Shown here: positions 41,375 to 58,975 of the stretch, piece after piece | Position numbering within the stretch: the stretch's first letter is position 1 | How the letters are laid out: each line of letters begins with the position of its first letter | Source: Nannocystaceae bacterium ST9 | GTDB lineage: Bacteria; Myxococcota_A; Polyangia; Nannocystales; Nannocystaceae | NCBI GenBank assembly: GCA_048320885.1 | Contig: JBLWFJ010000001.1 | Location: forward strand, 1,541,642 to 1,605,641 | DNA length: 64,000 nucleotides | Reading direction: 5' to 3' | Notes under the pieces: model-generated | What the model was told of the DNA's origin: nothing | The model's database searches: none | Seen by the model: only the letters and a program-made list of their open reading frames with translations | Translations under genes and position numbers: made by a program

Positions 41375-42982
41375 ATGGCAATCGGACGACGCAACTTCAT
41401 CATCACCGGTGGCGCGGCCACCCTCGGGCTCTCGCTGGCCACGCTGGCCACGCACAAGCAGGCGCGGGCGCGCGGGTTCGGTGAGCTCATCCCCGATCCC
41501 GAGGGGATCCTCGATCTGCCGGAGGGGTTCAGCTATCAGGTCCTCGAGACCGTGGGCGACGGCATGGACGACGGGTATCGGGTGCCGGGCAAACCCGATG
41601 GAATGGCCTGTTTTCCGGGCCCCGACAATACGCTGATCTTGATGCGCAACCACGAGGTCGGCGTCGGCGACATCCTCAATGGGCCCTACGCGCTGGGTCA
41701 ACTGCCGCCGGCCGAAGCCTATGAGCCTGCGGCGATGGGCGGAGTGAGTCGGCTGGTGGTCGACGCGACGACCTACGCGCGGGTGTCGAGCAACCTCGTG
41801 CTGGTCGGGACCATTCGCAATTGTGCGGGCGGGCCGAGCCCCTGGGGCTGGTTGAGCTGCGAGGAGAACACCGACGTCAACGGCGAGTATCGGCACGGCT
41901 ACACCTTCGTGTGCCCGACCGACGCCGAGTCGGTCCTGGCTCCGCAGCGGATCACCGGCTACGGGCGCTACAACCACGAGGCGGTCGCGATCGATCCGAG
42001 CAACTACTACGCGTACCTGACCGAGGATCGCGGCGACTCGTGCCTCTATCGCTTCGTGCCGACCGACATGGCCGAGCCCTTCGTCGGCCAGCTGCAGGCG
42101 CTGCGGGTGGTCGGCGTCGACGAGTACGAGACCGACGGCATGGCGGCCGGCGAGGTCGTCGACGTCGAATGGGTCGACATCGATCAACCCGATCCCAACG
42201 GCGACACGGTCCGGACCGAGGCCCAGGACAAGGGCGCGGCGATCTTCGTGCGCGGCGAGGGCATCTGGTTCTTCGAGGGTCAGATCTACGTCTGCTCGAC
42301 CAGCGGTGGCGAGGTCGGAGCCGGGCAGATCTTCCGGCTGATCGACGGCGACGCGCCGACGCTCGAGCTGGTCGTGCAGTCGACCGACACGGCCGAGCTG
42401 CAGAGCCCCGACAACATCACGGTCGCGCCCTGGGGCGAGGTGTTCGTCGCCGAGGACGGCGACGGCGACAACTTCATCCGCTGGGTCACCGCCGAGGGCC
42501 AGATCTGCACCTTCGCCCGCAACGCGGCCAGCGACAGCGAGTTCGCCGGTGTGTGCTTCTCGCCCGACGGCAAGGCGATGTTCGTCAACATCCAGGCCGA
42601 CGGGCTCACGCTGGTGGTGACCGGGCCCTTCCCGATGGTGATGATCCCCGGCGACGACACGACCGACACCGACTCGACCGACGACAGCGAGGGCACGGAC
42701 TCGAGCGACGGCAGCGAGGGCACGGACTCGAGCGACTCGGGCGAGGAGAGCACGACGTCGGGCGAGGGCGAGTCGGGCACGACGTCCGAGAGCGATGGCG
42801 AGGGCAGCGGCGACGAGATCGCCGACGACGAGAGTGGCGGCACCGACGAGACCGGCGCGGCGGTCGGGGACGAGGCCGAGGGCTGCAGTTGCTCGACCTC
42901 GGGCGAGTCCTCGGGTCTCGGCGCGCTGGTCACGGGGCTGGCGACGGTCGCCTTCGGTGCCATGATTCGCGATCGTGAATGA
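41375..42982 (+). CDS. PhoX-family (DUF839) alkaline phosphatase-like, TAT-secreted, MYXO-CTERM tail (paralog 1)
   Basis: TAT motif GRRNFII, beta-propeller-like body, acidic S/T/D/E linker, then GCSCSTSGE + hydrophobic helix + RDRE. Confidence 0.8.
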   Translation: MAIGRRNFIITGGAATLGLSLATLATHKQARARGFGELIPDPEGILDLPEGFSYQVLETVGDGMDDGYRVPGKPDGMACFPGPDNTLILMRNHEVGVGDILNGPYALGQLPPAEAYEPAAMGGVSRLVVDATTYARVSSNLVLVGTIRNCAGGPSPWGWLSCEENTDVNGEYRHGYTFVCPTDAESVLAPQRITGYGRYNHEAVAIDPSNYYAYLTEDRGDSCLYRFVPTDMAEPFVGQLQALRVVGVDEYETDGMAAGEVVDVEWVDIDQPDPNGDTVRTEAQDKGAAIFVRGEGIWFFEGQIYVCSTSGGEVGAGQIFRLIDGDAPTLELVVQSTDTAELQSPDNITVAPWGEVFVAEDGDGDNFIRWVTAEGQICTFARNAASDSEFAGVCFSPDGKAMFVNIQADGLTLVVTGPFPMVMIPGDDTTDTDSTDDSEGTDSSDGSEGTDSSDSGEESTTSGEGESGTTSESDGEGSGDEIADDESGGTDETGAAVGDEAEGCSCSTSGESSGLGALVTGLATVAFGAMIRDRE

Positions 42983-43068: not shown

Positions 43069-44634
43069 ATGGCATCCTTCGGACTCGGTCGACGCAAGTT
43101 CTTCCTCGCGAGCGGCGCGGCCACCCTCGGCCTCACGCTCGCCTCGCTCGCCACTCGCAAGCGTGCGAACGCTCGCAACCTGGGTGACTTGGTCCCCGAC
43201 CCCGCGGGCGTGCTCGACCTGCCGCCCGGGTTCAGCTACCAGATCCTCGATCAGTTCGAAGACGACATGGACGACGGCTATCGGGTGCCGGCCCGACCCG
43301 ACGGCATGGCCTGCTTCGCGGGTCCCGACAACACGCTGATCCTCATGCGCAATCATGAGAACAGCTTCGGTGACCAAAACGGGCCCTACACGGGCGACCA
43401 GACCCCGCCACCCGAGGCCTACGTGGCCCAGGCCAACGGCGGCGTCACCCGCATGGTCGTCGACGCCACGACCTTCGAGCGGATCTCCAGCAACCTCGTG
43501 CTGATCGGGACTCGCCGCAATTGCTCCGGCGGACCGAGCCCTTGGGGCTGGTTGAGCTGCGAAGAGGACGTGACCAACAGCTCCAACGGTCGGCACGGCT
43601 ACGTGTTCCTGTGTTCGATCGACGCCACGTCGGTTCAGGCGCCCAATCGCATCGATGGCTATGGTCGCTACAATCATGAGGCGGCCGCGATCGACCCGAG
43701 CAACTACCACGCCTATCTGACCGAGGACCAACTCGATTCGTGCCTGTATCGCTTCGTGCCCGACGACATGGCCGACCCCTTCGTCGGCAAGCTGCAGGCG
43801 CTCAAGGTGGTCGGGATCGACAACTTCGCGACCGGCGGCATGGCTGACGGCGAGGTCGTCGACATCGAGTGGGTCGACATCGACGAGCCCGATCCCGAGA
43901 CCGACACCGTCCGCGACGAGGCCCAAGCCAAGGGCGGCGCGCTCTTCATTCGCGCCGAGGGCATCTGCTTCTTCGAGGGACAGATCTACATCTGCACGAC
44001 GGCCGGCGGCCCGGTCTACGCCGGCCAGATCTTTCGGTTGATCGATGGCGCCACGCCGACCCTCGAGTTGGTCGTGCAGTCGCACGCGTTGCCCGAGCTC
44101 GAGGCCCCCGACAACATCGTCGTGGCGCCCTGGGGTGAGGTGTTCCTGTGCGAGGACGGCAACGGCGACAACTACATCCGCTGGGTCACCGCCGAGGGCC
44201 AGATCTGCACCTTCGCCCACAACGCGGCCAGCGACAGCGAGTTCGCCGGCGTGTGCTTCTCGCCCGACGGCAAGGCGATGTTCGTCAACCTCCAGGCCGA
44301 CGGCATCACCTTGGTGATCACCGGACCTTTCCCCAGCGACGCGCCTGGGGATGGCGACGGCGACACCACCGACACGACCGAGAGCACCGACACCGACGCC
44401 GGCGAGAGCGAGGGTGACTCGGCGGGTGGCTCGAGCGAGGGCGACGCGACGGGCACCGGCGACGAGATCGCCGACGAGAGCGGCACCGGCGACGAGACCG
44501 GCGCGGCGATCGGGGACGAGGCCGAGGGTTGCAGCTGCTCGACGAGCGGCGAGCAGACCAGCGTCGGCGCGTTGGTCACGGGGCTGGCCGCGATGGCGCT
44601 GGGCAGCCTGGTCCGCGAGCGCGATCACGAGTAG
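43069..44634 (+). CDS. PhoX-family protein with TAT signal and MYXO-CTERM tail (paralog 2)
   Basis: GRRKFFL TAT motif. Roughly 65-70% identical to paralog 1 across the length. Ends ...EGCSCSTSGEQTSVGALVTGLAAMALGSLVRERDHE. Confidence 0.8.
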   Translation: MASFGLGRRKFFLASGAATLGLTLASLATRKRANARNLGDLVPDPAGVLDLPPGFSYQILDQFEDDMDDGYRVPARPDGMACFAGPDNTLILMRNHENSFGDQNGPYTGDQTPPPEAYVAQANGGVTRMVVDATTFERISSNLVLIGTRRNCSGGPSPWGWLSCEEDVTNSSNGRHGYVFLCSIDATSVQAPNRIDGYGRYNHEAAAIDPSNYHAYLTEDQLDSCLYRFVPDDMADPFVGKLQALKVVGIDNFATGGMADGEVVDIEWVDIDEPDPETDTVRDEAQAKGGALFIRAEGICFFEGQIYICTTAGGPVYAGQIFRLIDGATPTLELVVQSHALPELEAPDNIVVAPWGEVFLCEDGNGDNYIRWVTAEGQICTFAHNAASDSEFAGVCFSPDGKAMFVNLQADGITLVITGPFPSDAPGDGDGDTTDTTESTDTDAGESEGDSAGGSSEGDATGTGDEIADESGTGDETGAAIGDEAEGCSCSTSGEQTSVGALVTGLAAMALGSLVRERDHE

Positions 44635-47853: not shown

Positions 47854-49374
47854 GTGCTGACTCGCCGCAAGCTGCTGACCGGCGCGGGCTTGGCCTTGAG
47901 CTTCGCGGCGCTCGGGCGGAGCCGCAGCGCGCGGGCCAGCGGGCGCTGGGGTGAGCCGATCCCCGATCCTCGCGGCGTGCTCGATCTGCCGGCGGGGTTC
48001 TCCTACGTGATCCTCGAGGAGTCCGGGCAGACGATGAGCGACGGCTATCGGATGCCCGGGCGGCCCGACGGGATGGCCTGCTTCGCGGGTCCGAGCGGCA
48101 CGCTGATCCTCATGCGCAACCATGAGAACAGCGTCGGGGCGATCGCCGAGGGGCCCTACCGCGAGGGCCAGAGCGCGCCGCCCGAGGCCTACGATCCCAA
48201 CGGGATGGGCGGCGTGTCGCGAGTGGTCGTCGACGCGCAGTGCTTCTCACGGATCTCGAGCAACATGGTGTTGATCGGATCGTCGCGCAATTGTGCGGGC
48301 GGCCCGAGCCCCTGGGGCTGGCTGAGCTGCGAGGAGACCATCCTGATCAGCGGCGAACATCGCCACGGCTACGTGTTCGTGTGCCCGATCGACGCCGACT
48401 CGGTCCGGCCGCCCGATCGCAAGCTCGGCTACGGTCGCTTCTTCCACGAGGCCGCCGCGGTCGACCCGAGCACCAACGTCGCGTACCTGAGCGAAGATCG
48501 CCCCGACGGCTGCCTCTATCGCTTCGTACCCGACGCGATCGCCGAGCCCTTCGTCGGCAAGCTGCAGGCGCTCGCGGTCGTCGGTCAGCCCGGCTACTCG
48601 ACCGGGCTGCTCGAGGTCGGCAGCGTGCTCGACATCGAGTGGATCGACATCGACGAGCCCGATCCCGATCAAGACACGCTCCGGGCCGAGGCGCATGGCA
48701 AGGGCGCGGCGGTGATCCTGCGCGGCGAAGGCATGTGGTTTCACCAACCCGACGGGTCGGACGCGGGCCAGGTGTTCTTCTCGGCGACGATCGGCGGGCC
48801 GATCGGCAAGGGCCAGATCTTCCGCCTGATCGACGGCCCCGCGCCGACGCTCGAGGTGGTGTACGGCTCGAGCGATCCCGAGGTGCTCGACATGCCCGAC
48901 AACATCACGGTCGCGCCCTGGGGCGACCTCTTCGTGGTCGAGGACGGCACGGGGACCAACTCGATCCGCTGGCTCGACGGCGCGGGCGAGCTCCACCACT
49001 TCGGCCGGACCGGCCTGAGCGAGCTGACCGGGATCTGCTTCTCGCCGGACGGCCGGGCGATGTTCGTCAACATCCAGGCGGCCGGGCTGACGCTGGTGGT
49101 GACCGGGCCCTTCGTCGACGAAGGCGGCGGCGACACGGGCGAGGGCACGAGCAGCGAGACCGGGGCGAGCACGAGCGGCTCGGGCACGGGTGGCGACTCG
49201 AGCTCGAGCGACGAGGCCGGCGCGGCGACGTCGAGCGAGGCCTCGTGCGGCTCGGCCAGCGAGGCCGACGCGAGCTGTGCGTGCTCGAGCGACGCGGGCG
49301 TGGGATCGAGTGCGCTGGCGCTGGCGGCCGCCGGCGTGGTCGCGGCCGGCCTGCGCCGCGAATCCGGCGAGTGA
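47854..49374 (+). CDS. PhoX-family protein with TAT signal and MYXO-CTERM-like tail (paralog 3)
   Basis: TRRKLLTGAGLA TAT motif. Body is homologous to paralogs 1 and 2. C-terminus SCGSASEADASCACSSDAG...AAAGVVAAGLRRESGE. Confidence 0.8.
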   Translation: MLTRRKLLTGAGLALSFAALGRSRSARASGRWGEPIPDPRGVLDLPAGFSYVILEESGQTMSDGYRMPGRPDGMACFAGPSGTLILMRNHENSVGAIAEGPYREGQSAPPEAYDPNGMGGVSRVVVDAQCFSRISSNMVLIGSSRNCAGGPSPWGWLSCEETILISGEHRHGYVFVCPIDADSVRPPDRKLGYGRFFHEAAAVDPSTNVAYLSEDRPDGCLYRFVPDAIAEPFVGKLQALAVVGQPGYSTGLLEVGSVLDIEWIDIDEPDPDQDTLRAEAHGKGAAVILRGEGMWFHQPDGSDAGQVFFSATIGGPIGKGQIFRLIDGPAPTLEVVYGSSDPEVLDMPDNITVAPWGDLFVVEDGTGTNSIRWLDGAGELHHFGRTGLSELTGICFSPDGRAMFVNIQAAGLTLVVTGPFVDEGGGDTGEGTSSETGASTSGSGTGGDSSSSDEAGAATSSEASCGSASEADASCACSSDAGVGSSALALAAAGVVAAGLRRESGE

Positions 49375-50918: not shown

Positions 50919-51410
50919 TCACTGGTTCTCGCGCCAGTTGTCGTGGTGCTCGACGCCGCCGTCCTCGTAGGTCCAGGTGATCGAGTGGAACACGAAGCTG
51001 ATCTCCTCGGTCGGGGGCTCGACCGCGGAGGCCGGGTCGATGGTGTCGGGCGAGACCCGCTTGATGCCGGCGACGCGGCCTTCGGTGAACTTGATGGTGA
51101 AGAACTGCTGGGTGGTGCCGTCGCCGGTCGGGCTCGGACGGAAGAACTTGAAGGTGCCCTCGACGATCTCGTTGTTGCACAGCGCCTTGGCCAGCAGCGG
51201 CGAGGACTTGTCGATGCGCTTGCGCAGGACGATCGGCTCGTAGGTGCGGCGGCCGGTGGCCATGCCGCTGCCCTTCTCGCGGGCCGTACGAACGGAGTCT
51301 TCGAAGTAGAGGCACTCGATCGAGTCTTCGCGACCGAGGCTGGTCTGGGTGCTCTCACCCTTGATGTCGGAGCCGTTCGCCTTGAGGTAGAGGTGTACTG
51401 TCTCGGCCAT
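50919..51410 (-). CDS. hcp: Type VI secretion tube protein Hcp
   Basis: 163 aa. MAETVHLYLKANGSDIKGES... is typical of Hcp1. Confidence 0.9.
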   Translation of the reverse strand: MAETVHLYLKANGSDIKGESTQTSLGREDSIECLYFEDSVRTAREKGSGMATGRRTYEPIVLRKRIDKSSPLLAKALCNNEIVEGTFKFFRPSPTGDGTTQQFFTIKFTEGRVAGIKRVSPDTIDPASAVEPPTEEISFVFHSITWTYEDGGVEHHDNWRENQ

Positions 51411-51551: not shown

Positions 51552-53270
51552 TCAAGCGCCCAGAGCCACCCTCAGCGGCAGGTCGAAACCGACCTCGAAG
51601 GGGATCGAGGCGAGCCGCGGACTGACCGTCGCGACCAGACGGATCGCGGGGCCATCGGACCCATCGACGACGCCGGCATCGAGCCGAGCACCTTCGCTGA
51701 GTCCTGGAAACAAGAACACCGTGGACGCATCGGTGAACAACTTCGCGACTTGATCGCGAGGCGTTCCGACCGGCACCTGCTCGGCGACCCACATGCCGAA
51801 GCGCACCAAACGCCCGGTCAAGATTTGGGCCGGAAGCGGCACGGCATCCTTGGATCCACGCAAGGTCGGTACGCCCGACAACGCGATCATGTCGGTGTTG
51901 CGACCGCTGCCGAGGCCCACGATACCCAACTCGGCGAGCTCGGACTGGGCCTTGATCGACAGGAACGCGGCGGTCGGAATCGTCGAACCAGCTTCGCGGC
52001 CCTTCGTGACTTCGTGCAGGCCCGGAGCCTTGAGCGATCCGTCCTTGCCCATGACCCGAGCGAATCCGCCGGTGTGCCTGAAGCTGGCCGCGAGCATGGC
52101 CGCGAGCACGAACACCGGATTGCCGAACACGCTGCGGCGAGCCGTGCCGGCCCCTTCGACGGCGACGACCGGATCGTTGAAGACCACGCTCATCCAGCGT
52201 GAGACCTCGTCCGATCGCAGATCGGCCCAACCTTCGGGCAGCGCCGCGCTGGGGTCTGGCTTGGCGTCGCGCAGGACCTGGCCGACGTCCTCGGCGTCCT
52301 CGACGTCGAACAACGCCGGACCGACGCCGACGACGACCGGCGCGTGGAGGTCTTCGGCCAGGGACGCGAGCGCCTGAAATTGTCCGGCGACCTGCGAGCG
52401 ATGATCGAAGCGATCGAACACGAAGAACGCGTCGGGCCGGTTCATCGCTTCGTCGTCGAGGCAGGCCTTCATCGCGGCCTCGATCTGATCGCTACCGGCG
52501 TCGACGACCTCGACCAGCATGCCGGAGCGCTTGGGGCACTGCTCGACGACCAGCTTGAGCCCGCGCCAGAGCGCCTCGGGCTCGGTCACCGCGGGGTGAT
52601 TGAGGATCGCGTTGACGGCCCCGAACACGGCCGTCTCGACCAGCTCGCGAGCGCGGCGAGGCACCGGCGTGCCCTTGTCGGCGACCTTGCTGGTGCTGCC
52701 GCGGATCGCCGTGATGAACGAGTCGACCGCACGCTTGCTCTCGGTCTGCCGCGCGACGCCACGCTCGAGCAGCTCGTCGACCAGCTCGCCCGACGCGGGC
52801 TTGGACTCGGTGTCTCGGTCGCGGGCGGCCGACTCGACGGCGGGCGCCGGCGTGGGCTCGCTCGCGGACTCGGGCGGCTCGCTCAGCAACTTGCCGAGCT
52901 CGCTGGCCAGCGGACCCTCGCCGATCAACGCGACCACGCGGGCGACCGCGGCCTCGGCCGAGGGCCGACGCGAGCTCGGACCCGCGACCTCGTCGGCCAG
53001 CTTGCGCAGCTCGCCGAGCACCGGGACGGTCGCGAGCACATGCTTGATCGCGTAGTGCTTGAGCTCGGCGAAGTTCAGCTCGACCTCGTGCTTGCCGGCG
53101 GCTCCGAGCGCGGGCCCGATGTCGAGCTTGGCCCCGAGCTTGGCGGCAGTGAACGCGGCCGCGAAGCCCTCGCCATCGAGCACGAAGCGACGGCCGGTGG
53201 GCGCGTCGGACAGCGCCCCGAGCAGCAGCCAATGAACGTGGGCAGAGTCGCGTGCGGAAGCTTCGGTCAT
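51552..53270 (-). CDS. T6SS sheath-like protein; apparent TssB-like N-terminus fused to a divergent TssC-like C-terminus
   Basis: The N-terminus matches the TssB pattern (VELNFAELKHYAIKHVLATVPVLGELRKL vs tssB VSLRFKSMKDFTPEGVVSQVPELQKLLDL). After a Pro/Glu linker the body aligns by eye with the TssC core (LHAPVVVGVGPALFDVEDAEDV vs AHAPFLGNAGPQMFGIESYEEL). Confidence 0.5.
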   Translation of the reverse strand: MTEASARDSAHVHWLLLGALSDAPTGRRFVLDGEGFAAAFTAAKLGAKLDIGPALGAAGKHEVELNFAELKHYAIKHVLATVPVLGELRKLADEVAGPSSRRPSAEAAVARVVALIGEGPLASELGKLLSEPPESASEPTPAPAVESAARDRDTESKPASGELVDELLERGVARQTESKRAVDSFITAIRGSTSKVADKGTPVPRRARELVETAVFGAVNAILNHPAVTEPEALWRGLKLVVEQCPKRSGMLVEVVDAGSDQIEAAMKACLDDEAMNRPDAFFVFDRFDHRSQVAGQFQALASLAEDLHAPVVVGVGPALFDVEDAEDVGQVLRDAKPDPSAALPEGWADLRSDEVSRWMSVVFNDPVVAVEGAGTARRSVFGNPVFVLAAMLAASFRHTGGFARVMGKDGSLKAPGLHEVTKGREAGSTIPTAAFLSIKAQSELAELGIVGLGSGRNTDMIALSGVPTLRGSKDAVPLPAQILTGRLVRFGMWVAEQVPVGTPRDQVAKLFTDASTVFLFPGLSEGARLDAGVVDGSDGPAIRLVATVSPRLASIPFEVGFDLPLRVALGA

Positions 53271-53522
53271 GATCTCGTCGCTCGTTGGTGTCCGATCGTC
53301 GGCGAAGCTGTCGATCCACTCGCGAATCGATCCAGCGCCTCGGTTCGCGCGGCCAGGGTATCCGCAACCAACCGGCAGTCCAAGCCCGATTCCACGTGAA
53401 AAACCGAGTCAGCCGCCCGCGATCGAGAAATCTCTGCGATCGTCGACACGCGTCGACGAGGTGACGGGGCGCTCGCAGCCCCGTGGGCGGGTGGTTTCGA
53501 GCGCCCCCGATCGTCGCGCACC

Positions 53523-56500
53523 TCAAGTCAGCTTGCTGGCGGCCTCCGGGTCGATTCGGCACAGTCGCTCGAACGCCGAGTCGCTGGTCAGCGGGGGCTT
53601 GGCCTTCTCGGCGTCGGCCCGAGCGCGGACCAGCCCTTGCAGGCAGCGCGTCGCGAGCTCGGGCTCCCAGCGATCGAGCCCGCGCTCGTCGAGCTCGCGG
53701 GCGAGGCCGCCGAACAGGCCGAGCGCGACACGGGGCGCTCCGGCCCCAGCCATCTCCGCCAGTGCCAATCGGATCAGCATACGGTTGCGATCATTGCTGG
53801 CGGAATCGATCAGCGCTTGAACCTGCTTGGCCGCGTCGCCGAACTTGCCGCCGCCGGCCGCCTTCTTGGCTTCGTCGAGCGCCGCGACAACGTCTTCGGG
53901 CAGACCCCCCGGACCGCCGCCGCCTCCCGAGCCGCCCGCGTCGACGAACACGTCGTTGTCGATCCAGGCCTTGGCGTCGGGGCTGCACATGGTCGTCCCG
54001 TTGCCGAAGTTGAGCGTCATGACCATCGGCATCCGACCGATCAGCGAGTGCACGCCGTCAATCACCGCGTCGCGTGCGTCACCGTGGCCGAGCTGCCCGA
54101 GCGCGAGCGCGCTGAGCCAGTGCAGGTCCATCCAGAACCGAAAGCGCATCAGCGACGACTCGGTCTCTTCGAGGACGTCGGCCCACTTGCCGTTGGCCTT
54201 CATCAGCTCGAGCCGCTTGAGCAGGTCGGGCGGCGGCGCGGGGATCTGGGTGTTGCCGTTGGGCTGCGCGGGCGGTGGGTTGACGATGTGCAGGTAGAGA
54301 CCCTGACGCATCAATCGATAGGCCAGCGGATCGCGGAGGTTGGCCCGGCGCATCAGGTTGGCCGTGCTGATCAGATCGCCGCCGACCTTGGCGAGGTACT
54401 GGACCGCCTCCTCGGCGGACTTGGGCGCGGCTTGAGCCGCGGGCATCGGTGCACCGCCGCCGGCAGGCGCCGCTGCTGGGGCCGGCGCGGCGCTGGGTTG
54501 AGGTGGTGGCGGCGGGGCAGCGGGGGGCGGTGGCGGTGGCGGTGCGGCCGGCTTGGGCGGCTCGGGCACCGACATCTCGAGCCGGCTGATCGCGTCGCGC
54601 AACCCTCGGGTCGCGGGCGGGCTCTCGAACTTCTGATTGATGACGCCGAACAGGTGCTTGGCCGCGAGGCCGAGCTTGACGATCGACTCGCGCTCGGCGG
54701 CCGTCGGCTTGTGCTCGCCGACCTCGCGCTCGAGCTGATCGAGCAGCCAGCTCATCGCGTTCGACCGCCGGCGCTCCTTGTCCTTGGGCGGCTGCATGTC
54801 GTCCCAGAACCGATCGCAGAGCTCGGCGAGCATCGCGAGGCCCTGGACCAACCCCTCGAACCCGCGCTGCCTGTGCAGCGCGCGAGCGAGGTAGGCCGCG
54901 ATCAAGAGGTCCTTGCTCCTCGTCTGCAGCAGCTTGGTCGAGATCCGCTGGACGCTCGGCCAGTCCGGCTCGCCGCCGCTGACCGACTCGAGCTTGCCGA
55001 TCTCGTTGCGGACGGCCTCGTGATCGGGGTCGTACTTCGCGTCTTCGCCGGCCGGCTTGGCCTCGGAGATCGGCTTGATCCACGCCTCGGCGAGCGCGGC
55101 CGGATCGAAGGCGGGCTTGGCCGGCTCGGCCGCGGGCGCCGACGCGGGTGCAGACGCGGCGGGCTGAGGCGCGGGTGCGGACGCGCTCGGTGCAGGTGCG
55201 GGCTGGGGCGCCGCGGCGGGCTGGGGCGGCGGAGCGGGAGGTGGCGCGGCGACCTGAGGCGCCGACATCTTGGCCCGGTTGATCGCGTCGCGCAGCCCTC
55301 GGGTGGCCGGGCCCGACTCGACGAAGCGAGCGTTGAACACCCCGAACATGTGCTTGGCGACCTCTTCGAGATCGGCGAGCGGCTTGCTGTCCTTGGCCGT
55401 CGGGGTCAGATCGGTCAGCACCCGCTCGACCGGCTCGAAGAGCCAGGTGATCGCGTTGGAGCGCCGGCGCTCCTTGTTGGGATGCACGTCGTCCCAGAAG
55501 CGATCGCAGAGCTCGGCGATCAACGCGAAGCCGGTGACCAGCCCGTCGAGCCCCTCGAGTTCGAAGAGCGCGCGGGCGAGGTAGGTCGCGAGCACGAGAT
55601 CCTTGCTCTTCGTCTCGAGCAGCTTGCCGGTGATCCGCTTGACCGCGATCCAGTCGGGCTGGACGCCCGAGACCGACTGCAGCTTGTCGATCTCGTTGCG
55701 CGCCTCGGTGTGCTCGGCGTCGTAGCGCGTGTCTTCACCGACCTTGCTCGGCCCGGGGATCGGCTCGAGCCACTTGGCCACGCGCGGCGTCCAGGGCTGA
55801 GCCGGCGCTGCGGAGGTGGCTGCGGGCGGTGGTGGAGGAGGTGGCGGGGGTGGAGGTGGTGGTGGAGGGGGCGGAGGTGGTGGAGGTGGTGGCGGTGCAG
55901 CGACCGGCGCAGGCTCGGGTGCCGGAGGCGTCTCGATGACGGGCGGCGCCTCGATGGGTGCGGAAGTCGATGCCTCGACGGGCGCCGGTTCAGGCTCGGG
56001 TTGCGGAGGCGGAGCAGCCACGGGCTCGGGCGCAGGCGCGGGCTCGGGCGCTGGTGTGCCGGCGGGCGCAGAACCGCCAGCGAGCGCCGCCGCGAGGGCG
56101 GCCTGCTCGTCGGCGGACGCGGGCGGCAAGTTCAACTCGAGCCGCTTGATGCCATCGGTCAGCGAACGCATGCTGGGCGCTTCGTCGCCGAAGCGATCGC
56201 GGACGATCCTCGCCAGCTCGGGTCCATACTCGCCGAGCAACGCGATCGCGATTCGATCCTTCGCACCGACCTGCATGCTGCCGCTCGCCGCCTCGAAGCG
56301 ACCGATGAACCAAGACAGCGCGTTGGCTCGCCCGCGCAGCCGCTTGACCGGCGGGAACCCGTCGTCCCAGTACTTCTCCATCAGCCCGTTGAGCAGGCGC
56401 AACCCGGCCGCGAGCCCGCCGAGCCCCTCGAGCTCGTACCAGGCCCACGCGACGTAGCAGGCCAGCAACACGTCCTTGCTGACGGCGCGCAGCAAGTCGC

Positions 56501-56681
56501 TGCCGCCCTGAGCCACGCGCGGCCACTCGGGCAGCCCACCCATCGGCGACTCGATCTTGGTGACCTCGCGGCGGAGGTCTTCGTGACGAGGATCGTAGTT
56601 GGCGTTCTCGCCCGCCGGGCTCGCGCCGGGGATCGGTGCGAGCAAGGGAGCGACGCGAGCTTCGAGGGTCTTGCGGTCCAT
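53523..56681 (-). CDS. tssA: TssA-family protein with three tandem ImpA_N domains and Pro-rich linkers
   Basis: Three copies of the ImpA_N pattern (PIpG...GEdarYDpdheavRnEI.kLeS..G..pDW..V.r....LL.T.SKDL..A.YLArAL....G..GL..G...L.eLcdRFWDD). A 24-residue polyproline run (seen as a poly-G codon run on the + strand around 55816-55900). TssA/VasJ-like C-terminus. Confidence 0.8.
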   Translation of the reverse strand: MDRKTLEARVAPLLAPIPGASPAGENANYDPRHEDLRREVTKIESPMGGLPEWPRVAQGGSDLLRAVSKDVLLACYVAWAWYELEGLGGLAAGLRLLNGLMEKYWDDGFPPVKRLRGRANALSWFIGRFEAASGSMQVGAKDRIAIALLGEYGPELARIVRDRFGDEAPSMRSLTDGIKRLELNLPPASADEQAALAAALAGGSAPAGTPAPEPAPAPEPVAAPPPQPEPEPAPVEASTSAPIEAPPVIETPPAPEPAPVAAPPPPPPPPPPPPPPPPPPPPPPPPAATSAAPAQPWTPRVAKWLEPIPGPSKVGEDTRYDAEHTEARNEIDKLQSVSGVQPDWIAVKRITGKLLETKSKDLVLATYLARALFELEGLDGLVTGFALIAELCDRFWDDVHPNKERRRSNAITWLFEPVERVLTDLTPTAKDSKPLADLEEVAKHMFGVFNARFVESGPATRGLRDAINRAKMSAPQVAAPPPAPPPQPAAAPQPAPAPSASAPAPQPAASAPASAPAAEPAKPAFDPAALAEAWIKPISEAKPAGEDAKYDPDHEAVRNEIGKLESVSGGEPDWPSVQRISTKLLQTRSKDLLIAAYLARALHRQRGFEGLVQGLAMLAELCDRFWDDMQPPKDKERRRSNAMSWLLDQLEREVGEHKPTAAERESIVKLGLAAKHLFGVINQKFESPPATRGLRDAISRLEMSVPEPPKPAAPPPPPPPAAPPPPPQPSAAPAPAAAPAGGGAPMPAAQAAPKSAEEAVQYLAKVGGDLISTANLMRRANLRDPLAYRLMRQGLYLHIVNPPPAQPNGNTQIPAPPPDLLKRLELMKANGKWADVLEETESSLMRFRFWMDLHWLSALALGQLGHGDARDAVIDGVHSLIGRMPMVMTLNFGNGTTMCSPDAKAWIDNDVFVDAGGSGGGGGPGGLPEDVVAALDEAKKAAGGGKFGDAAKQVQALIDSASNDRNRMLIRLALAEMAGAGAPRVALGLFGGLARELDERGLDRWEPELATRCLQGLVRARADAEKAKPPLTSDSAFERLCRIDPEAASKLT

Positions 56682-58489: not shown

Positions 58490-58975
58490 TCAGCCTTCGC
58501 TGGCGCCGAGCTCGGCCAGCAGCTTGTCGCGGGCTTCCGAGTCCTCGAGGATCGACTGGATCTTCTTGCGGAAGGCCGGGATGTTGCCGAGCGGGCCCTT
58601 CAGCGCGTTGAGGGCGTTGCGGAGATCGAGCAGCTTCTGCAGCTCGGGCACCTGCGAGACCACGCCCTCGGGCGTGAAGTCCTTCATGCTCTTGAACCTG
58701 AGGCTGACCGGCATCTCCGCGCCGGCCTCTCCCGACAGCTTGTCCGGTACGTTGATGTCGACGCCGACCTTGTACTCGGCCAGCACGTCGTTGAAATTGT
58801 CCTTGTCGACGTTGATCGCCTTGCGATCCTCGACGGGAGTGTCGTCCTTCTTGCCGGTGAAGTCGCCCAGCATGAGGATCTTGAGCGGGAGCTCGACATC
58901 CTCCGTGGCGTTGCCGGCCGGCTTGTAGACGATGTTGACGCGTTCCTTCGGGGCGACGGATCCTTCTTTGGCCAT
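58490..58975 (-). CDS. tssB: T6SS contractile sheath small subunit TssB
   Basis: Start MAKEGSVAPKERVNIVYKP at 58975 (the ORF extends to 59125). VipA pattern ...LPLKILMLGDFTG...MKDFTPEGVVSQVPELQKLLDLRNAL. Confidence 0.85.
   Translation of the reverse strand: MAKEGSVAPKERVNIVYKPAGNATEDVELPLKILMLGDFTGKKDDTPVEDRKAINVDKDNFNDVLAEYKVGVDINVPDKLSGEAGAEMPVSLRFKSMKDFTPEGVVSQVPELQKLLDLRNALNALKGPLGNIPAFRKKIQSILEDSEARDKLLAELGASEG

Follow-up and report, generated by a model that had tools for sequence, protein, structure and literature searches.

A single-chain, one-armed TssB-TssC sheath paralogue encoded beside the canonical sheath genes of myxobacterial type VI secretion systems

Type VI secretion systems (T6SS) have a contractile sheath that is usually presented as a polymer of TssB/TssC heterodimers, uniform throughout, and the canonical protomer is known from several structures (VipA/VipB; PDB 3J9G, 5MXN and 5URW). 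An additional sheath gene is known from the group 5 T6SS of Agrobacterium and Rhizobium, in which a TssC-like gene (tssC40 or impD; Atu4340) lies beside canonical tssB-tssC. Agrobacterium TssC40 is needed for Hcp secretion, is not redundant with TssC41 and does not stabilise TssB (Lin et al. 2013, PMC3702570), and the significance of this second TssC has been called unclear (Bernal et al. 2018, PMC5813230). In this study, we describe an extra sheath gene of another kind in a 64,000-nucleotide stretch of the genome of Nannocystaceae bacterium ST9 (contig JBLWFJ010000001.1, positions 1,541,642 to 1,605,641; hereafter the window). Its product, a 572-residue protein encoded between tssA and hcp, shares the fold and both halves of the canonical protomer and lies in one operon with the genes of that protomer, but carries the two halves in one chain instead of as separate partners of a 1:1 heterodimer. 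A TssB-TssC fusion had been proposed at this place in an earlier note made from the letters of the window alone, and Pfam, a profile search of the PDB, profile-profile alignment and a predicted structure with fold search all agree on it.

The TssC half is evident from the single sequence. Taken alone, the protein matches Pfam VipB (PF05943) with an E value of 3.2e-20 (72.8 bits, against a gathering cut-off of 27) and directly matches solved TssC/VipB chains, and BLASTP aligns its residues 161-474 with the window's own TssC (E 1e-12, 22% identity). A family profile was built from an alignment of 45 collected relatives (A1); it matches the TssC chains of the PDB at E 4.6e-29, and PF05943 is matched by each of the 45 members individually. 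In profile-profile alignment with a small canonical TssC alignment (hhalign, 99.6%, E 1.4e-23), residues 160-554 correspond to TssC 16-474 of 491. The TssB signal of the single sequence is weak, with BLASTP against the window's own TssB giving E 2e-4 at about 24% identity and neither PF05591 nor TIGR03358 being matched at E <= 1 by the 572-residue protein alone. However, PF05591 is matched by 24 of the 45 relatives individually, the family profile matches VipA/TssB chains of the PDB at E 1.3e-11, starting at VipA residue 28, and hhalign against a small canonical TssB alignment gave 97.9% (E 3.8e-13). AlphaFold2, run with A1, returned a confident model of a single protomer (mean pLDDT, the per-residue confidence, 90.1; pTM, the global score, 0.86), in which confidence is low only at residues ~131-200. 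When this model was compared with solved structures by Foldseek, the top matches were T6SS large sheath subunits throughout, from Vibrio, Pseudomonas, Myxococcus, Azotobacter and Francisella (367-468 columns aligned, E 3e-13 to 9e-9), followed by sheath proteins of phages, pyocins and extracellular contractile injection systems (eCIS) at E 1e-6 to 1e-3. The earlier note had named a match to a known baseplate component as grounds for rejecting the fusion; besides VipB/TssC no T6SS component family (TssA, TssK, TssF or TssG; ImpA_N or VasJ) was matched at E <= 1 in Pfam or NCBIfam. The 572-residue protein is thus shown to be a TssB-TssC fusion, in which an entire T6SS sheath protomer is contained in a single chain.

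The fusion is no recent copy of its neighbours. Its identity is about 22% with TssC and about 24% with TssB, whereas canonical TssC proteins of different phyla share 37-86%, and unlike canonical sheath proteins it falls below the equivalog cut-offs of both TIGR03355 and TIGR03358. For TIGR03355 it scores 60.7 bits (residues 174-469) against a cut-off of 271.5, compared with 680 for the canonical TssC of the window. Canonical tssB and tssC are present separately, as the earlier note had said, at 3.7-5.7 kb rather than the 3 kb given there. These data show that the fusion is an old, strongly diverged paralogue, kept in addition to canonical tssB and tssC.

The coordinates of the gene, its parts and its T6SS neighbours are collected in Table 1. 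The two halves are joined by a stretch correctly described in the earlier note as rich in Pro, Glu and Ser: residues 131-160 hold six Pro, six Ala, five Glu and five Ser among 30 residues and are predicted to be disordered (pLDDT 40-55); in other family members the linker can be as short as 8 or as long as 34 residues. Of the TssB motif quoted in that note, the VPxLxxL part stands (VPVLGELRKL), while the DFxP part does not and reads HYAI. Compared with the canonical proteins, the fusion is without ~29 residues at the start of TssB, ~15 at the start of TssC and ~80 residues of TssC loops; the C-terminal helices of TssB are kept according to hhalign. The first core strand accordingly begins at residue 12 in the fusion (VHWLLLG) and at residue 31 in the canonical TssB of the window (LKILMLG), and the lead before this strand measures 6-13 residues in 42 of the 44 members of the myxobacterial clade. 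A misplaced start codon hiding an N-terminal arm is excluded by the reading frame and by the family alignment: the frame cannot be extended at the N-terminus because it was called from the first start codon that follows a stop, the start Met is common to the alignment of the 45 homologues, and homologues at 25-87% identity align with the protein from end to end. In the sheath, each subunit donates its two arms to the ring on its baseplate side, and the linkers of the first ring are believed to be taken up by TssE (Nazarov et al. 2018, PMC5813253). Since the TssB N-terminal strand is one of the two arms given baseplate-ward, the segment missing from the fusion corresponds to one of its two donor arms.

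At the other end of the chain the second arm appears to be kept. The C-terminal domain gives no match to PF18945; hhalign nevertheless reaches TssC residue 474 of 491, and the Foldseek alignments cover 420-468 columns, the TssC chains having 414-473 residues modelled. The last strand (predicted at residues 558-565) was equated by eye with the TssC C-terminal linker strand (...ASFTLSLVGKL), and its F562, L564 and P565 are nearly invariant in the family. The motif G-E-L-V-D-E-L-L is also conserved, with V in 30, D in 38, L or I in 43 and L or F in 44 of the 45 members; the TssC N-terminal helix to which it aligns is presumably the ClpV-binding helix of Vibrio VipB. As shown by these alignments, the predicted architecture of the myxobacterial clade is that of a protomer which lost the TssB N-terminal linker strand and kept the gp25-like (handshake) acceptor domain, the strand at the C-terminus and the motif of the N-terminal TssC helix.

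Table 1. Coordinates in the window of the fusion gene, the parts of its product and the neighbouring T6SS genes
Feature	Position	Strand	Basis or remark
Complete gene, 572-aa single-chain TssB-TssC paralogue	51552..53270	minus	open reading frame with ATG start; stop codon 51552-51554
N-terminal lead, residues 1-10	53241..53270	minus	replaces ~29 TssB residues carrying the N-terminal linker strand; hhalign starts at residue 11
TssB-like module, residues 11-133	52872..53240	minus	hhalign to TssB 30-160 of 161; pLDDT 92-97
Pro/Ala/Glu/Ser-rich disordered linker, residues 134-159	52794..52871	minus	composition; pLDDT 40-61
Motif G-E-L-V-D-E-L-L, residues 161-168 within 160-170	52761..52793	minus	aligned to TssC N-terminal helix 'GSLLDSIL'
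TssC-like main body, residues 160-474 (PF05943 region)	51849..52793	minus	Pfam VipB, TIGR03355, hhalign
Divergent C-terminal domain, residues 475-572, with conserved PAQILTGRxVRF helix	51555..51848	minus	probably corresponds to gp25-like domain of TssC
Last beta-strand, residues 556-566 (IPFEVGFDLPL)	51573..51605	minus	place of TssC C-terminal linker strand
hcp (tube protein), next gene downstream	50919..51410	minus	PF05638 E 1e-24; TIGR03344 112 bits
tssA, 1052 aa, next gene upstream	53523..56681	minus	PF06812 in three stretches, PF16989 (VasJ), TIGR03362 567 bits
Canonical tssC, 491 aa	56959..58434	minus	TIGR03355 680 bits; PF05943 and PF18945
Canonical tssB, 161 aa, from MAKEGS...	58490..58975	minus	TIGR03358 181 bits; PF05591
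clpV/tssH, 902 aa	59876..62584	minus	Clp_N, two AAA modules, ClpB_D2-small

The fusion belongs to a large family. An exhaustive profile search of 1.84 billion representatives returned 407 clusters at 50% identity with E <= 1e-30; among the 150 clusters listed, most span most or all of the profile, and the rest are partial entries of 158-460 residues, probably fragments. A scan of one genome per species yielded 80 loci, nearly all labelled Myxococcota or older delta-/Proteobacteria, including Nannocystaceae (Enhygromyxa, Plesiocystis), Sandaracinaceae and Polyangiales as well as Myxococcus (M. xanthus AM003 too), Pyxidicoccus, Archangium, Cystobacter, Hyalangium, Vitiosangium and Citreicoccus. 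Strong conservation on this scale (407 clusters, 80 loci) argues for a function. A second clade of fusions, about 560-650 residues long and less diverged from TssB and TssC, is found in Azospirillum, Stellaceae and many metagenomic proteins, a spread that rests on the exhaustive profile search, a few cluster names and one locus; tblastn of the Azospirillum fusion (P0116) against plasmids gave no match. The profile of this second clade aligns with Rhizobium ImpB from residue 12, and because it keeps the N-terminal strand region, the fusion is a trait of the whole family and the loss of the arm one of the myxobacterial clade only. At their source, family members are named 'hypothetical', 'ImpC', 'contractile sheath large subunit' or 'sheath domain-containing protein'. 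The earlier note knew of no description of such a protein, and our full-text literature search likewise found no published study of the family or of any natural TssB-TssC fusion.

Sheath proteins made of one polypeptide per protomer are known from contractile phages, R-pyocins and eCIS (T4 gp18, the pyocin sheath, Afp2-4 and Pvc2-4). They share the handshake domain and the core fold with the fusion at a sequence identity of only 8-15%, and their chains have both arms, whereas the myxobacterial fusion has one. With T6SS TssB and TssC as its closest matches, the fusion derives from these two and not from the sheath genes of phages. The fold matches include sheath-like chains of solved eCIS baseplate complexes (AFP 6rao_C/D, PlPVC1 9qgl, Streptomyces 9gtp and Anabaena 7b5h). 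eCIS carry several sheath paralogues, of which the minor ones build baseplate-proximal layers.

The group 5 ImpD/TssC40 resembles the fusion in being an extra TssC-like gene beside canonical tssB-tssC, and its slot, after tssC and before tagJ/tssE, is the one that the fusion occupies in Azospirillum. On the Rhizobium leguminosarum WSM1689 plasmid the ImpD gene (locus L007, 8559-9947) encodes 462 residues and is annotated tssC. Unlike the fusion, Rhizobium ImpD has no TssB part and is without the first ~60 residues of TssC, including the N-terminal helix. Membership of ImpD/TssC40 in the fusion family was considered and rejected, the protein scoring 275 bits against the canonical TssC model and 79 and 212 bits against two fusion profiles; by its sequence, ImpD/TssC40 is to be regarded as a separate, unfused paralogue, an analogue of the fusion and not a member of its family. 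No extra sheath gene was found in the T6SS cluster of the Rhizobium jaguaris chromid.

Four genomic contexts were distinguished. In Nannocystaceae, including the window, the order is (clpV)-tssB-tssC-tssA-fusion-hcp. In Sandaracinaceae, Polyangiales and others it is hcp-tssE-tssF-tssG-clpV-fha-(427-residue protein)-fusion, and in Azospirillum tssA-tssB-tssC-fusion-tssE-tssF-tssG-clpV, whereas in Cystobacterineae, including M. xanthus, the fusion is an orphan surrounded by housekeeping genes (aldehyde dehydrogenase, GTP cyclohydrolase, GNAT). The family is thus present in other myxobacterial T6SS clusters (Nannocystaceae, Sandaracinaceae and Polyangiales loci), the place where the earlier note had suggested looking for it. 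At every T6SS-linked locus with flanks long enough to take in the sheath genes, the canonical tssB and tssC were there too; the fusion is an addition to the canonical sheath genes and not a replacement for them. Beyond what the earlier note had seen, the family proves to be large and old, the TssB N-terminal strand is missing, a motif like the ClpV-binding helix is kept, and in Myxococcus and its relatives the gene lies outside the T6SS cluster.

The ~427-residue protein, which has no Pfam match, is conserved between fha and the fusion (L004, 8668-9951; loci of the L026, L039, L046 and L056 type). The idea that it is a TssA, which would make 'TssA then fusion' a general rule, was rejected, since it has no Pfam match and no similarity to the TssA of the window. 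The M. xanthus AM003 orthologue (~555 residues; L073, 9968-11650) is an orphan between genes for an aldehyde dehydrogenase and a GNAT acetyltransferase, and the same placement is seen in the Myxococcus-type loci L048, L051, L059, L074 and L087; no conserved partner gene was found beside these orphan ~550-residue copies in Cystobacterineae. Myxococcus is reportedly also the genus of the solved T6SS sheath structures PDB 5URW and 5URX. A paralogue of about 475 residues occurs in another conserved group, exemplified by Cystobacter fuscus (L077, 9986-19930); its layout is shared by L071, L076, L083 and L084 and, in part, by L070 and L079. In this group the ~475-residue paralogue is followed in conserved order by a ~650-residue protein with no Pfam match and a coiled-coil protein of 655-985 residues, and it faces a ~1260-residue protein that carries IcmF_helical and IcmF-related_N domains. 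The group, which has no further T6SS gene within 10 kb, may be a separate module around a sheath-like and a TssM-like protein.

In the window itself, clpV, tssB, tssC, tssA, the fusion gene and hcp follow one another on one strand, and Pfam and NCBIfam calls on the neighbours bear out the placement of the 572-residue protein between tssA and hcp. A tblastn search of the 64 kb with T6SS proteins found no baseplate, membrane-complex or VgrG genes, so the locus represents a tail module of sheath, TssA, tube and recycling ATPase. The TssA of the window has three tandem ImpA_N domains, also seen as internal repeats, with long Pro/Ala-rich spacers, and then one VasJ C-terminal domain. A close relative (L003, 6534-9797, and L002, 16842-19076, were compared) has three ImpA_N domains as well, and a more distant myxobacterial TssA has two; to our knowledge, TssA proteins otherwise carry one. 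The 252-bp gap between tssA and the fusion gene contains a 10-bp G+C-rich inverted repeat (GGGGCGCTCG...CGAGCGCCCC) at 53466-53507 (minus), just past the tssA stop codon, in a strongly folding stretch of 86 nucleotides (-47.6 kcal/mol, z -3.45) without a T-run. This repeat could reduce or separate the expression of the downstream genes; a scan for promoters and terminators around the fusion gene gave nothing above background. On the plus strand, three paralogous secreted proteins of ~505-535 residues with near-identical N-terminal halves are encoded at 41375-42982, 43069-44634 and 47854-49374. Each ends in an acidic Ser/Thr/Asp/Glu-rich tail, a Cys motif (..EGCSCSTSGE.. or ..CACSS..) and a hydrophobic stretch, tails which by eye look like a myxobacterial C-terminal sorting signal; NCBIfam gave no match for the three proteins.

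The earlier note had speculated that a single-chain sheath-like protein could be a cap, an initiator or a regulator of the sheath. What such a protomer might do is suggested by the polarity of the sheath. The donor arms are directed at the baseplate, the acceptor sites away from it, and the fusion keeps the acceptor domain and the C-terminal arm only, so that it would be best suited to begin a sheath. We therefore propose, tentatively and at somewhat less than an even chance, that the fusion is a minor, low-copy, position-specific sheath subunit, most likely forming one hexameric ring, a primer or adaptor from which the sheath is started on the baseplate. A low copy number, confined to one ring, would fit the loss of one arm and the co-occurrence with canonical sheath genes. 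Such a ring would attach to TssE by its one remaining arm, the C-terminal strand, and would present the first ring of canonical TssB/TssC with a complete set of acceptor sites; with the second arm missing, the fusion should not polymerise on itself. Being a single chain, it would require no TssB partner for stability, and the ClpV-type helix retained in a flexible segment might allow ClpV to remove it after firing. The proposed role can be likened to that of TssE, a non-polymerising receiver of sheath linkers at the start of the sheath, whose small handshake fold (TssE/gp25) is common to the C-terminal domain of TssC and, by alignment, to that of the fusion. TssE, however, is a protein of ~130 residues in the baseplate wedge, whereas the fusion is a full protomer, and tssE genes are also present in related clusters. 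A precedent for an extra TssC-like protein that is indispensable and non-redundant is given by Agrobacterium TssC40 (PMC3702570).

Several observations weigh against a primer ring. The ~600-residue proteobacterial clade keeps the N-terminal strand region; loss of the arm is therefore not family-wide, and the argument built on it may not generalise. Subunits of the wild-type first ring are thought to give both arms to TssE (PMC5813253), so that a one-armed first ring would be tolerated rather than required. The neighbouring genes fail to discriminate between the two ends of the sheath, being tssA and hcp here, tssE in Azospirillum and fha or clpV elsewhere. Moreover, no T6SS genes were found within 10 kb of the orphan fusion in Myxococcus, Archangium and relatives, several Cystobacterineae genomes also carry the shorter paralogue of about 475 residues, and both the orphans and the copies linked to IcmF suggest possible functions beyond the classical tail.

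The opposite end of the sheath has been considered as well. That the fusion directly follows tssA at every resolved Nannocystaceae locus, and that the TssA there is unusual in its three ImpA_N domains, would fit a distal-end factor working with TssA, which either couples the TssA cap to the last ring by its C-terminal strand or stops or stabilises the finished sheath; for docking on the last ring, an element on the cap side would require the C-terminal donor strand that the fusion retains. However, adjacency to tssA is not general, the fusion lying between tssC and tssE in Azospirillum and after fha and the unrelated 427-residue protein in Sandaracinaceae and Polyangiales. Its acceptor domain is kept, so that it would not by itself block further growth, and new subunits join at the distal end, where a fixed ring would need continual displacement. 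We consider a distal-end role doubtful. A soluble regulator is unlikely too, that is, a mimic of a sheath subunit which stays outside the lattice and binds ClpV by its exposed TssC-type N-terminal helix, or binds free TssB/TssC, TssA or Hcp, and so tunes recycling or assembly. The L-V-D-E-L-L motif matching the TssC N-terminal helix is conserved and lies in a low-confidence, probably flexible stretch of the model, the fusion gene is directly downstream of clpV at one locus and within a clpV-fha operon at many, and the loss of one arm suits a protein meant not to polymerise. On the other hand, conservation extends over the entire protomer fold with its handshake domain and last strand, which is more than a ClpV decoy needs, and the putative ClpV-binding role of the motif is carried over from Vibrio VipB.

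A complete protomer in one chain, like the phage and pyocin sheath proteins among its fold matches, could also polymerise alone or with Hcp into a second sheath or filament, perhaps non-contractile, differently regulated or, in some lineages, independent of the cluster, as the orphan copies and the paralogue linked to IcmF-like and coiled-coil proteins in Cystobacterineae would allow. Yet the myxobacterial clade is without one of the two inter-subunit linkers, the T6SS-linked loci with flanks long enough all have canonical tssB and tssC, and no dedicated second tube gene adjoins the fusion, which makes a bulk sheath of this kind quite improbable. It is very improbable that the gene is a decaying duplicate with no role of its own: the very low identity to canonical TssB and TssC and a TIGR03355 score far below the cut-off could be read in that way, but the protein is conserved at full length over hundreds of clusters in several Myxococcota families, with near-invariant family-specific motifs, and its model is confident and compact. 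A statement that covers both ends of the sheath would be that myxobacterial and some proteobacterial T6SSs contain an unrecognised structural component, a one-chain, one-armed sheath subunit forming a single specialised ring which either primes the sheath on the baseplate or couples it to TssA; in this full form we hold the idea only as a possibility, with more doubt than confidence.

It is confirmed here that a fused, one-armed T6SS sheath paralogue is widespread and conserved, with no published study of it found in our literature search. The composition of the sheath's distal end has been called unclear (Nazarov et al. 2018, PMC5813253), and the fusion bears both on the sheath ends and on the templating of the first ring in its high-energy extended state, a conserved extra protomer minus one connecting arm being an obvious candidate for an end-specific element. 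Database labels such as TssC/ImpC or 'sheath domain-containing protein' inflate tssC counts and hide the fusion family. In M. xanthus the T6SS has been imaged in situ and genetics are easy, and the orthologue in this species makes the idea of an end element directly testable. In Cystobacterineae a further recruitment of the fusion family may have taken place, in which IcmF-like and coiled-coil proteins joined it in a module separate from the classical cluster. If the reading as a specialised ring is true, Agrobacterium would have arrived at a solution of the same kind by way of a different paralogue, its second TssC, and the fusion would provide a frame for a question open since 2013, namely why the Agrobacterium/Rhizobium system needs a second TssC.

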